In this document: in pieces, positions 38,720 to 47,217 of the stretch
How the letters are laid out: the number at the start of each line of letters is the position of its first letter
How positions within the stretch are numbered: the first letter of the stretch is position 1
NCBI GenBank assembly: GCA_035405645.1
Contig: DAONJL010000010.1
Span: 2,836 to 66,835, forward strand
Length of the DNA stretch: 64,000 bases
Direction of reading: 5' to 3'
Source: a bacterium
Lineage (GTDB): Bacteria > JAGOBX01 > DAONJL01
Notes under the pieces: model-generated
What the model was told of the DNA's origin: nothing
What the model saw: only the letters and a program-made list of their open reading frames with translations
Databases searched by the model: none
Program-made: the position numbers and the translations under genes

Positions 38720-39796
38720 TTAATAAAAAATCCTGACTAATTCTTCTGGTATTTTTGGTAAAGGTAAAACTTTATCTACTGCACCAACTTCAATCGCTAC
38801 TTTTGGCATACCAAAAACAACTGCTGTTTCTTCTGATTCTGCAATATTATACGCACCTTTTTCTTTCATCTTTTTTAAACCAACAGAACCATCTTTTCCC
38901 ATACCAGTCATTATTACACCAATTGAAGCACCTTCATAAACATTCGCTACTTCACTCATTAAAATATCTGCTGATGGATTAAATAATTCTTTTTCATCTT
39001 TTGGTAATAAAATAATCTCTATTTCACCTCCTTTTTTCTTTAAAGAGAATTGTGTTCCAGCTTTTCCAATTAAAGCAAGACCAGGTTTTACAATATCGCC
39101 TGTGGCTGCTTCTTTTACTTTTATACTACAAACAGAATTAAGCCGTTCTGCAAGTGGTGCTGTAAAACCTACTGGCATATGCTGCACTATTAATAAACCA
39201 ACAGGAAAATCAGCAGGTAATTTTGTTAAAACTGTATTTAATGCAGGGGGGCCACCTGTTGAAGTCCCTATTGCTATTACATTATATTTTAATGTTTTTG
39301 CTACTCGTGGCTTTGCCTTTAAAGATGCAAAAAATGTTTCATCAAAGAATTTTTTTGTCTTTTGTTTTTGGATTATTGATGTAATAGAAATCTGCATTAC
39401 TTCGTGTATCTTTTTTACTAACTCATTTTTTATGTTCTGGATATTAACTGCTACAAAAGAACCTGGCTTGGCGATAAAATCAAGTGCTCCATTATCAAGT
39501 GCTTCAAATGTTATTTTTGAGCCTTCAATTGTTAATGAACTAACCATAATCACACGTGTTGGAGCTTCTTTCATTATTTGTTTTAATGCCTCTATGCCAT
39601 TCATCTTTGGCATTTCTACATCAAGCGTAATAATATCAGGTTTTAATTTTATTGCTTTTTCTACTCCTTCAACACCATTTGTTGCAAAATCTATTATTTC
39701 TATATCGTGTTCTGATGATAACATATTTGCAAGTGCCTGTCGCATAAAATTTGAATCATCTACAATTAGTAATCTTATCTTGCTTCTAATTTCCAT
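38720..39796 (-). CDS. cheB: Chemotaxis methylesterase (REC + CheB)
   Basis: VDDS, LDVEMP, IGTSTGGP, QHMP, MTGMGKDG; start set at MEIRSK. Confidence 0.97.
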   Translation of the reverse strand: MEIRSKIRLLIVDDSNFMRQALANMLSSEHDIEIIDFATNGVEGVEKAIKLKPDIITLDVEMPKMNGIEALKQIMKEAPTRVIMVSSLTIEGSKITFEALDNGALDFIAKPGSFVAVNIQNIKNELVKKIHEVMQISITSIIQKQKTKKFFDETFFASLKAKPRVAKTLKYNVIAIGTSTGGPPALNTVLTKLPADFPVGLLIVQHMPVGFTAPLAERLNSVCSIKVKEAATGDIVKPGLALIGKAGTQFSLKKKGGEIEIILLPKDEKELFNPSADILMSEVANVYEGASIGVIMTGMGKDGSVGLKKMKEKGAYNIAESEETAVVFGMPKVAIEVGAVDKVLPLPKIPEELVRIFY

Positions 39797-39861
39797 TCTG
39801 CGAGTACTCCTTAAAAACATTGAATTTTTAATTATTTAAATATTATCTATTTGCTTTATTT

Positions 39862-40719
39862 TCACTTCTTTATATAACCTAATGCATTTTTAAATTGCAC
39901 TAATTCAAATGCTGTTGATATCCTGAATAACGATTCACTATGTCCTAAAAAGAATATTCCATTTTTATTTAATGAATTATAAAAACTATCTATTACCTCT
40001 TTTTTCGTCTTTTCATTAAAATATATTAAAGCATTTCGACAAAATATAATATCAAAATTTTTTAATGAATTCATCTTTACTTTATCAAGAAAATTTACTA
40101 TTTCAAATGTAACATATTTCTGTATCTCATCTTTAATTTTATAACCTTCACTTACTTTTATGAAATATTTTTCAAGATATTTCTGTTCTGTTGAACGAAA
40201 CGAAAAATCGCGATATACACCTTTTTTTGCTTTTGCTATCATCTCATTTGATATATCTGTTGCGTATATTGTAAAATTATTTTTTATTTCTGGACTATTT
40301 GTTTCATTTAATAGCATAGCAATTGTATAAGGCTCCTCGCCACTTGAACACGCTGCTGACCATATCTTTATCCTTTTATCTATTGCAAATGATTTTTTTT
40401 TCTCATTTAACATTGGCATAAAAATCTCATCCCGCAATGCTATTATTTGATTTATTTCTCGAAAAAAATATGTCTCATTCGTTGTTAATTCTTCTATTAT
40501 CTTTTTTATCTCTTCATTTTTTTTTACATCATATTTTAAATAATAATAATAATCTTTAAAATTATTAAATCCTAAATTTTGGACGAACTTGCTTAATCTA
40601 CCCTCAATTATATATTTCTTACTTTCTGGATAATATAATCCTGTTATTTCAAGAATAAACTCACTTAATAATTTAAACTCTTCATCTGTCATCTTGTTGA
40701 CTTGAATATTTATTGACAT
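39862..40719 (-). CDS. cheR: Chemotaxis methyltransferase
   Basis: TTNETYFFRE, WSAACSSGEEPYTIAM, IIFCRNALIYF. Confidence 0.97.
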   Translation of the reverse strand: MSINIQVNKMTDEEFKLLSEFILEITGLYYPESKKYIIEGRLSKFVQNLGFNNFKDYYYYLKYDVKKNEEIKKIIEELTTNETYFFREINQIIALRDEIFMPMLNEKKKSFAIDKRIKIWSAACSSGEEPYTIAMLLNETNSPEIKNNFTIYATDISNEMIAKAKKGVYRDFSFRSTEQKYLEKYFIKVSEGYKIKDEIQKYVTFEIVNFLDKVKMNSLKNFDIIFCRNALIYFNEKTKKEVIDSFYNSLNKNGIFFLGHSESLFRISTAFELVQFKNALGYIKK

Positions 40720-40728
40720 ATCTTCTCC

Positions 40729-46482: not shown

Positions 46483-46493
46483 ATTTTTTCTCC

Positions 46494-46865
46494 TTATAAA
46501 TTTAATATCTTTTTTACTTTTGCCTGTAATTGAAATGGTTGAAATGGTTTGACTATATAATCATTTGCGCCTAATCGCATTGCTTGCTCTTTATCATCAT
46601 CGCGTCCTTCTGTTGATAATACTATTATCTGAACATCTTTATAATTTGGATTTTTTCTTAAATATCTTATAAAATCAAAACCATTCATTTCTGGCATATT
46701 CAAATCTGTTATTACTAAATCCATTTTATTATTCGCACATATCTCTATTGCTTCTACTCCATCTTTTGCTTCAAATGTATTAATATCTGGAAATGTTTTT
46801 AATGTCATCTTAACTAACATTCGCATTGTTGCTGAATCATCTACTATCAAAATATTATATGGCAT
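46494..46865 (-). CDS. cheY: Chemotaxis response regulator
   Basis: VDDS, TDLNMPEMNG, LSTEG, VKPF; start set at MPYNIL behind GGAG. Confidence 0.92.
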   Translation of the reverse strand: MPYNILIVDDSATMRMLVKMTLKTFPDINTFEAKDGVEAIEICANNKMDLVITDLNMPEMNGFDFIRYLRKNPNYKDVQIIVLSTEGRDDDKEQAMRLGANDYIVKPFQPFQLQAKVKKILNL

Positions 46866-46881
46866 AATTACTCCCACCTTT

Positions 46882-47217
46882 TTATTTAAATGTTTCTATT
46901 GCTTCCTGTTCATTATCATAAATATCAAAATACTGGTTTAATCGCGTTACATCTAATAACTGTTTTACATTTTGATTTATTCCACAAAATTTTACCTGTC
47001 CATTTGAATTCTGTAATTGCTTTACTGTTGATATCATTAATGCTAATCCTGTTGAATCAATAAAATTTGTTTGTTCTAAATTAAATAATATTTTATCCTT
47101 CTTTTGCTCTATTATTTTTTCTATCTCCTTATTTACATCTTTTACTACATTTTTAGAAAAATTATTTTTTAGTACTATTATTACTATACCATCCTTTTCT
47201 TTCATTGTATAATCCAT
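46882..47217 (-). CDS. STAS-domain anti-sigma-factor antagonist
   Basis: FNLEQTNFIDSTGL with phosphorylatable Ser, LDVTRL. Confidence 0.9.
   Translation of the reverse strand: MDYTMKEKDGIVIIVLKNNFSKNVVKDVNKEIEKIIEQKKDKILFNLEQTNFIDSTGLALMISTVKQLQNSNGQVKFCGINQNVKQLLDVTRLNQYFDIYDNEQEAIETFK

Follow-up and report, generated by a model that had tools for sequence, protein, structure and literature searches.

The window analysed here, a 64,000-nucleotide stretch with a GC content of 26% (contig DAONJL010000010.1, or C10, of assembly GCA_035405645.1), carries on its minus strand a chemotaxis (Che) gene cluster with the order STAS-cheY-cheA-cheW-HEAT-cheR-cheB-MCP, in which MCP stands for a methyl-accepting chemotaxis protein. 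An initial annotation made from the DNA letters had proposed this order, placed the genes at 38720-47217 and read the system as one with a non-motility output that feeds a sigma factor. Every gene named in that order was confirmed by Pfam; the genes from STAS to cheB lie inside the proposed span, and the MCP gene lies just outside it. The cluster is a genuine, conserved chemotaxis-type operon with two extra genes, encoding a phosphorylatable STAS protein and a large HEAT scaffold.

The first gene of the conserved cluster (46882-47217) encodes a STAS protein of 111 amino acids (aa) and anti-sigma-factor-antagonist type, detected by Pfam STAS with 67.3 bits and by the NCBIfam model TIGR00377 with 70.7 against a cut-off of 53.45. 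It is followed by a single-domain CheY, 127 aa long as called from a GTG codon (46494-46877; Pfam Response_reg, 105.8 bits), and by a CheA histidine kinase of 894 aa with two Hpt domains (43798-46482), for which Pfam reports Hpt in two stretches, H-kinase_dim, HATPase_c and CheW-like and which is also matched by the NCBIfam CheA models. The next genes encode a CheW coupling protein of 165 aa (43125-43622; Pfam CheW, 140.8 bits), the HEAT-repeat solenoid of 792 aa (40729-43107; Pfam HEAT_2, 325 bits in nine stretches), a CheR methyltransferase of 285 aa (39862-40719; Pfam CheR_N and CheR, 199.5 bits) and a CheB methylesterase of 366 aa with a receiver domain (38720-39820; Pfam Response_reg and CheB_methylest), which scores 414 with the NCBIfam CheB subfamily model at a cut-off of 293. 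The genes are spaced by 4-49 nucleotides, with the exception of the 175 nucleotides between cheA and cheW; the gaps between STAS and cheY and between cheY and cheA are 4 and 11 nucleotides, and the HEAT gene begins 17 nucleotides past cheW and ends 9 nucleotides ahead of cheR. All components of a chemosensory pathway were thus found: the CheA domain set (Hpt, dimerisation, HATPase and CheW-like) is complete, and CheW, the MCP, CheR, CheB and a CheY with its phospho-acceptor aspartate are encoded, the MCP gene with an in-frame stop.

The MCP gene spans 36328-38670 on the minus strand and encodes a receptor in which Pfam finds CZB, HAMP and MCPsignal, the signalling domain being long. Its reading frame is broken: an ATG at 38670 opens an N-terminal piece of 54 codons that contains the first transmembrane helix (TM1), a TAA stop lies at 38506-38508, and the remainder forms an open reading frame (ORF) at 36328-38400. 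An intact paralogue on contig C119 has a lysine (AAA-type codon) at the position of the stop. The interruption could mean that the gene is a pseudogene, but it could also be a variant within the population or an error of the assembly. The CZB-bearing receptor of the initial annotation held up, as the domain scores 33.1 bits against a cut-off of 29.4 and its motif is complete (H..L, CAFGKW and HNNFH, window 37900-38250, residues ~60-130 of the ORF). Its place between TM1 and TM2 predicts a periplasmic location; to our knowledge, the CZB sensors characterised so far are cytoplasmic. The C-terminal arm of ~209 aa suggests a receptor of a long heptad class. Several other MCPs of the genome have a hairpin tip nearly identical to that of the window MCP, and these could serve as input to the window CheA.

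The window CheY has equivalents of D12/D13, D57, T87, Y106 and K109, with all switch residues present; the true start is probably an ATG four codons after the called GTG. Among the single-domain matches of the genome that bear D57 it ranks first, and the only single-domain receiver that outscores it against E. coli CheY is without Asp57. That stand-alone CheY-like protein (C6:32531-32908), the top genome match to E. coli CheY, has a valine at this position and is a pseudo-receiver. Multidomain response regulators are frequent as outputs in the class with alternative cellular function (ACF) (PMC3447774), a trait that is typical of the class and not obligatory; the window regulator is a 127-aa single-domain CheY. 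In CheA, the two Hpt domains carry the motifs FRSAHTIKG and FRRMHTLKG (window 45620-46482).

Conservation was assessed in the class to which the genome belongs, which consists of four species-level genomes, and in further genomes related at the domain level only. All four class genomes are of 3-4.5 Mb, flagellated and equipped with many Che systems. One of them is labelled 'Candidatus Dependentiae' at NCBI; the described Dependentiae have reduced genomes, unlike these four. The three other class species (G001, G002 and G003) all keep the order CheA-CheW-HEAT-CheR-CheB, and HEAT orthologues occupy the same position in each of them and in a closer metagenomic relative (locus L011). The G001 cluster (L035, of a type designated family f2) reads STAS-CheY-CheA-CheW-HEAT-CheR-CheB-[REC-like + RsbW-like kinase]-STAS2-FapA, REC denoting a receiver domain, with unrelated ETF genes ahead of it, whereas that of the closer relative reads STAS-[GAF-PP2C]-CheY-CheA-CheW-HEAT-CheR; STAS orthologues head both. 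Conservation of the gene set, which the initial annotation had named as a check, was thereby borne out, with STAS and HEAT kept in the cluster in 4/4 species of the lineage and in the closer relative. Partner-switch enzymes travel with the cluster in these relatives. In family f2, the receiver part of the kinase is degenerate, with the acidic pair missing and a glutamate at the Asp57 position, and the CheA orthologues are longer (957-1139 aa). The f2 cluster is closed by a FapA/DUF342-family protein of 1141-1155 aa (L035 2903-6328), whose copy in the window genome lies elsewhere, at C49:1882-5349.

The HEAT protein is composed of HEAT repeats only. Its AlphaFold2 model (predicted local distance difference test score, pLDDT, 91.8) shows 49 helices that form one continuous all-alpha solenoid, with no further domain, NCBIfam has no specific family for it, and it is the single representative of its kind in the genome. 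A search of the genome contigs with the HEAT alignment gave matches in the three class relatives only. On a broader scale, HEAT homologues were found in 44 of 401 sampled genomes (E<=1e-25). Twenty long HEAT loci were extended to about 18 kb for context; 19 of these lie in che clusters, cheR is the next gene in 12, and in one further locus a single receiver gene stands between HEAT and cheR. HEAT directly upstream of cheR was the arrangement at every locus retrieved for its context, namely in the window and in L010, L011, L013, L015, L016, L086, L038 and L087, and in four of these the two genes overlap by 4 nucleotides. One of the 12 cheR-next loci (L025/L085, G021:C13) encodes an outright HEAT:CheR fusion of 638 aa with five HEAT_2 stretches, CheR_N and CheR (Pfam). 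The fusion gene is preceded by cheW and a gene for a receiver. In the extended locus none of the genes after it carries a cheB label, although the short locus gave a weak CheB match. In Syntrophales-type clusters (L086 and many homologues), PAS:HEAT fusions of about 900 aa stand upstream of cheR-cheB. These fill the same slot and suggest that some HEAT partners sense signals themselves. Outside the class, 21 genomes have HEAT che clusters, and only 10 of these encode FlhA; by its genomic distribution the HEAT module thus goes with the adaptation enzymes and not with any one output or with flagella.

The nearest organism-named CheA cores outside the metagenome-assembled genomes of the lineage itself are CheA-REC proteins of the Deferribacterota, with 55-57% identity. 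In Deferribacter desulfuricans (AP011529), the corresponding genes are embedded in a flagellar operon with the order flhA-flhF-flhG-fliA-cheB-fliM-fliN-cheY-cheZ-cheA-...-SpoIIE-STAS-[STAS:HEAT fusion]-cheR, an arrangement shared by Denitrovibrio acetiphilus and known from genome data alone. For the Deferribacter CheA, CheB, CheR, CheY and STAS:HEAT proteins, the best match in the window genome is in each case the window cluster, and the core proteins of the two systems are mutual best matches. Identities of the window proteins to Deferribacter, to the in-class genome G001 and to E. coli are 57, 52 and 42% for CheA, 44, 44 and 38% for CheB, 45, 54 and 32% for CheR, and 45, 48 and 34% for CheY; the CheA core is 75% identical to that of the closer metagenomic relative. 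Overall, the resemblance of the core proteins to the Deferribacterota set is on a par with that to orthologues within the lineage. A tree of CheA cores was built from the paralogues of the same genome, its relatives, the Deferribacterota, E. coli and the CheAs of other HEAT clusters; in it the branch of the window CheA is short and lies close to family f2, to the L012 type and to the Deferribacterota. The HEAT-linked CheAs do not form one clade in this tree. The related two-Hpt CheA of the L012/L039 type (GCA_054002855.1 and GCA_054003125.1) is found in a different setting, CheA-STAS-CheW-Hsp70-DnaJ-sigma54 activator, without CheR, CheB or HEAT and with the STAS gene between cheA and cheW.

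The Deferribacterota thus supply the closest CheA, CheY, CheR and CheB outside the lineage and share with the window lineage a PP2C phosphatase, STAS and a HEAT protein directly ahead of cheR, although the PP2C of this shared set is not in the window locus itself (its orthologue lies on contig C91). Only the Deferribacterota have a STAS:HEAT fusion besides a free STAS, a CheA with a C-terminal receiver, cheZ and interleaved fliA, fliM and fliN, whereas the window cluster is a stand-alone operon that is not embedded among flagellar genes with cheZ, its HEAT protein of 792 aa is unfused and its CheA carries two Hpt domains but lacks a receiver. The STAS:HEAT fusion is 472 aa long and occurs in about 80 protein clusters, of which every source-named one is from the Deferribacterota. 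Its model has a pLDDT of 93.9 and a predicted template modelling score (pTM) of 0.78, the pTM alone being no proof of a fixed STAS-HEAT interface, and a fold search with it returned generic HEAT scaffolds only (alphaRep and PP2A PR65).

The serine of the phosphorylation motif DSTGL is present in the window STAS, and its column is kept in all aligned STAS proteins. HEAT clusters that also carry STAS were found in the window class, in the Deferribacterota, in G022 (SpoIIE-RsbW-STAS-HEAT-REC-CheR-REC-REC-CheZ-CheA...MotA) and in G031, which has a STAS-HEAT pair; all of these are flagellated. No anti-sigma kinase or PP2C gene stands beside STAS in the window, and no sigma or anti-sigma gene was found in or beside the cluster in the window or in any relative examined. 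The cognate anti-sigma kinase that the initial annotation proposed to look for is therefore missing from the cluster, and RsbW-like candidates exist elsewhere in the genome, on C40 (RsbW), C53 (REC+RsbW-like, 28% identical to the family f2 kinase gene) and C6 (PP2C-kinase). PP2C candidates lie on C91, which holds the orthologue of the relatives' PP2C, C8 and C115 (REC-PP2C). Altogether, the genome encodes five or more STAS proteins, no fewer than four PP2C phosphatases and three RsbW-type (HATPase_c_2) kinases but only four sigma-70-family genes. Most of its partner switching probably does not end on sigma factors. The view of STAS as a partner-switch protein was accordingly upheld by its motif and by the linked enzymes in relatives, and its connection to a sigma factor was not.

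The genome that contains the window comprises 2.97 Mb on 141 contigs and is 91% complete. About nine CheA-like genes are spread over eight loci of this genome, and CheR and CheB accompany CheA at only two of them, the window cluster and one on C1. Flagellar genes are located on C6 (motAB, fliM, fliN, flhA, flhF and fliA) and C70 (fliG), and the N terminus of the genome's own FliM has the CheY-P-binding motif LSQEEIDSLL. The initial annotation was right that the window is free of cheC, cheD, cheX, cheZ and flagellar genes: genome-wide family searches placed the flagellar genes on other contigs and CheX/CheC-like genes on C3, C28, C39 and C124 only, and found no CheD or CheZ anywhere in the genome.

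The cluster is flanked by seven genes that are housekeeping genes or unrelated to it, on the upstream side a membrane ORF and genes for ComF-like, PgsA, MiaB-like and TopA proteins, on the downstream side genes for BrkB and a phosphodiesterase. The membrane ORF (226 aa, 47224-47904) was considered as a cluster member and rejected, since it is not conserved in relatives. A scan for sigma-70 promoters and terminators was uninformative in DNA of 26% GC, with 109 matches against 95 expected.

STAS genes are known from che clusters, the Che7 system is known to include a HEAT protein, and the control of CheR by a solenoid is an established idea from CheR-TPR proteins (PMC3447774), TPR standing for tetratricopeptide repeat. 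A literature search for HEAT, STAS, CheA and chemosensory found no paper joining them. The fusions (STAS:HEAT and HEAT:CheR), the translational coupling and the output-independent distribution lead us to infer that the HEAT solenoid works with CheR and that STAS works with HEAT. A precedent for the first part is FrzF, whose TPR domain limits methylation (PMC3447774). In FrzF and WspC, as proposed here, an alpha-solenoid on CheR modulates methylation, and the G021 fusion is the HEAT counterpart of these proteins; unlike the window solenoid, their repeats are of the TPR type, short (1-4 repeats) and placed at the C terminus, and are typically found in ACF pathways that have multidomain regulators.

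Based on these observations, we propose that the MCP, CheW and CheA signal to CheY while CheR and CheB adapt the receptors, and that the HEAT solenoid would be a binding partner or scaffold of CheR, and perhaps also of CheB and receiver proteins, which controls the access of CheR to the receptors. STAS would act as a switch that is phosphorylated on serine. Its state would be set by PP2C phosphatases and RsbW-type kinases, which relatives encode within the cluster and this genome elsewhere, and it would bind the HEAT protein in dependence on its phosphorylation. The partner switch would then be an input that tunes the adaptation and sensitivity of the array to the state of the cell and not a route to a sigma factor, and the primary output would be CheY~P, whose most likely site of action is FliM in the flagellar switch. 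The motor is favoured as the CheY target because the core proteins belong to the flagellar type of the Deferribacterota, and HEAT is taken as a partner of CheR and not as part of the output because of its linkage to cheR, the fusion and its spread independent of flagella. Domain content, gene order, conservation, the fusions and the similarity to genes of flagellar operons were observed directly, and the HEAT-CheR and STAS-HEAT contacts, the direction of the signal and the motor as target are deduced from comparisons between genomes. As a whole we favour this reading, at a likelihood that falls slightly short of even. The narrower proposition, that STAS, HEAT and CheR form a phosphorylation-gated complex through which Ser/Thr partner switching sets receptor methylation, appears rather unlikely.

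Several observations weigh against the proposed adaptation control with a motor output. The cluster does not adjoin flagellar genes in its own genome, CheZ was not found there, and the genome has some eight other CheA loci. CheX adjoins other CheY-like genes on C3 and C28, and these could be the motor regulators. The only receptor gene of the cluster contains a stop codon, and the backbone of the CheA tree is without resolution at its base. In addition, the gene order of the cluster matches that of stage-1 F7 chemosensory clusters, and a published HEAT protein, Cpc7, serves as the output partner of a CheY.

The first of these two precedents belongs to an alternative close to the view of the initial annotation, in which the array is a stress or zinc/oxidant sensor, CheA phosphorylates a receiver-coupled PP2C or RsbW-type kinase and so determines the phosphorylation of STAS, which releases or holds a sigma factor, HEAT is a scaffold, and motility is not directly affected. 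A scheme of this kind has been proposed for Shewanella Che1-CrsR/CrsA-RpoS and for stage-1/2 F7 systems. In stage-1 F7 systems such as Vibrio cholerae cluster III and that of Methylomicrobium alcaliphilum, the order is antagonist-cheY-cheA-cheW-cheW-aer2-cheR-cheD-cheB-mcpA-antagonist-Ser phosphatase (Ortega et al. 2020, PMC7184735), and these systems do not control the motor in gamma-proteobacteria, their role being unknown or stress-linked (PMC7184735, PMC7534058). The window cluster shares with them the succession of antagonist, cheY, cheA, cheW, cheR, cheB and mcp, the lack of cheZ and a genome with other Che systems, and its relatives add a trailing RsbW-like kinase and STAS2 (G001-G003) or a PP2C near the cluster head (L011). 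The STAS-cheY-cheA head is present in both the window and G001. On the other hand, the window has one cheW and not two, HEAT fills the slot that those clusters give to a second cheW and to the Aer2 PAS-HAMP receptor, the window receptor has CZB between two transmembrane helices and HAMP, the genome lacks cheD, and the trailing second antagonist and serine phosphatase are absent from the window. The window CheA, CheB and CheR are 42, 38 and 32% identical to those of E. coli, the sole F7 reference compared, versus 57, 44 and 45% to those of Deferribacter.

A sigma-directed output can also draw on the partner-switch genes around the cluster and elsewhere. In family f2, cheB is directly followed by the REC-like+HATPase_c_2 gene and another STAS, a GAF-PP2C gene stands between STAS and cheY in L011, and the window genome encodes the REC-PP2C, REC+RsbW-like, PP2C-kinase, RsbW and STAS proteins enumerated above, with the cluster itself unlinked to flagellar genes. 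Furthermore, Shewanella oneidensis Che1 carries the CrsR/CrsA switch for RpoS (PMC9855816), and in the HptB-HsbR-HsbA pathway of Pseudomonas aeruginosa, HsbA switches between FlgM and HsbR/HsbD (PMC6482189). In these systems, as in the window, the gene for a phosphorylatable STAS protein accompanies che or flagellar genes, and STAS changes partners according to its phosphorylation, which PP2C and kinase domains determine. However, those systems use a three-domain REC-PP2C-kinase regulator with RpoS, FlgM and HsbD as known partners, whereas the window has no such regulator and no known sigma-related partner at the locus, and a HEAT protein is absent from them. No version of the cluster contains a sigma or anti-sigma factor, the receiver of the family f2 kinase is degenerate, the genome has few sigma-70-family genes, and in the Deferribacterota and G022 the STAS/PP2C/HEAT set is found inside flagellar operons with cheZ and fliMN. 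Nor does this alternative account for the bond between HEAT and cheR, and we regard it as unlikely.

These results bear directly on the output assigned in the initial annotation. A sigma factor as the target was not corroborated, as no sigma or anti-sigma gene occurs at the locus in any relative and HEAT tracks cheR and not an output, and a non-motility output finds no support in the canonical single-domain CheY or in the closest outside homologues, which are embedded in the Deferribacterota flagellar operon with the same STAS, HEAT and PP2C accessories. That annotation had stated that it would fall if the system belonged to a standard flagellar class and the STAS/HEAT linkage were not conserved; only half of this applies, because the linkage is conserved. 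A non-motility output that feeds a sigma factor is thus weakly supported; a non-motility output as such is possible, but it is not the better-supported reading.

A different non-motility route would follow the second precedent, with CheY~P binding HEAT, HEAT relaying the signal to a non-motility effector, and STAS and CheR as mere regulatory neighbours. In Myxococcus xanthus, the HEAT protein Cpc7 is reported to bind CheY7 as the output of Che7, with development as the response (Darnell et al. 2014, cited in PMC11514114). The window cluster is like Che7 in that one of its genes encodes a large HEAT-repeat protein, which would likewise act through contact with a Che protein, and unlike it in that the genomic signal points to CheR and STAS. 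Reportedly, no STAS protein is involved in the Myxococcus system. A receiver gene stands directly ahead of HEAT in L016, L066, L067, L071, L075, L079, L081, L082, L084 and L085, and half of the HEAT-bearing genomes are without flagella. Moreover, the Geobacter beta-group/Esn cluster controls electrode colonisation (PMC5585712, PMC2577667) and shares its CheY-CheA-ATPase-CheW order with the HEAT-bearing L016 of the Desulfuromonadales, where a receiver gene and HEAT-CheR-CheB follow, matching the order of GSU2220-2222; PMC2577667 lists such clusters as holding genes whose function is unknown, without naming HEAT. The L016/Geobacter type has in common with this route the non-motility phenotype of the Geobacter cluster, but it differs from the window in having no STAS, a CheA on a distant branch, and an extra ParA-like ATPase and receivers. 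In the window, HEAT is preceded by cheW and not by a receiver gene, no effector gene is conserved beside HEAT, and the HEAT:CheR and STAS:HEAT fusions and the 4-nucleotide overlaps of HEAT with cheR speak for CheR and STAS as partners of HEAT, which makes a Cpc7-type relay improbable. Least probable is that the cluster is decaying or idle here, its sole dedicated receptor a pseudogene (TAA at 38506-38508 versus lysine in the paralogue) and its accessory kinase and phosphatase genes lost from the locus (PP2C on C91, REC+RsbW-like on C53 and FapA on C49 are displaced relative to the relatives' clusters), given that the other seven genes are full length with intact motifs, other MCPs with a near-identical hairpin tip could feed CheA, and a variant in the assembly or the population may explain the stop.

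The adaptation control proposed here would, if true, be an undescribed layer in chemosensory signalling. Adaptation in chemotaxis is carried out by CheR and CheB, with CheC, CheD or CheV in addition in some bacteria; a STAS-gated HEAT partner of CheR would be a new control point at which cell-state signalling by PP2C and RsbW-type enzymes reaches receptor methylation. About one bacterial genome in ten, in many phyla, would have the HEAT-CheR part, and the STAS-gated version would be found in several flagellated lineages, namely that of the window, the Deferribacterota and the G022 type. Anti-sigma antagonist genes are also found in che clusters of Borrelia and Leptospira, and the proposal would give the unexplained "anti-sigma antagonist" genes of che clusters (stage-1/2 F7) a testable role. 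Geobacter, Denitrovibrio and Deferribacter are cultured and partly tractable carriers, so that the idea would be directly testable in them.

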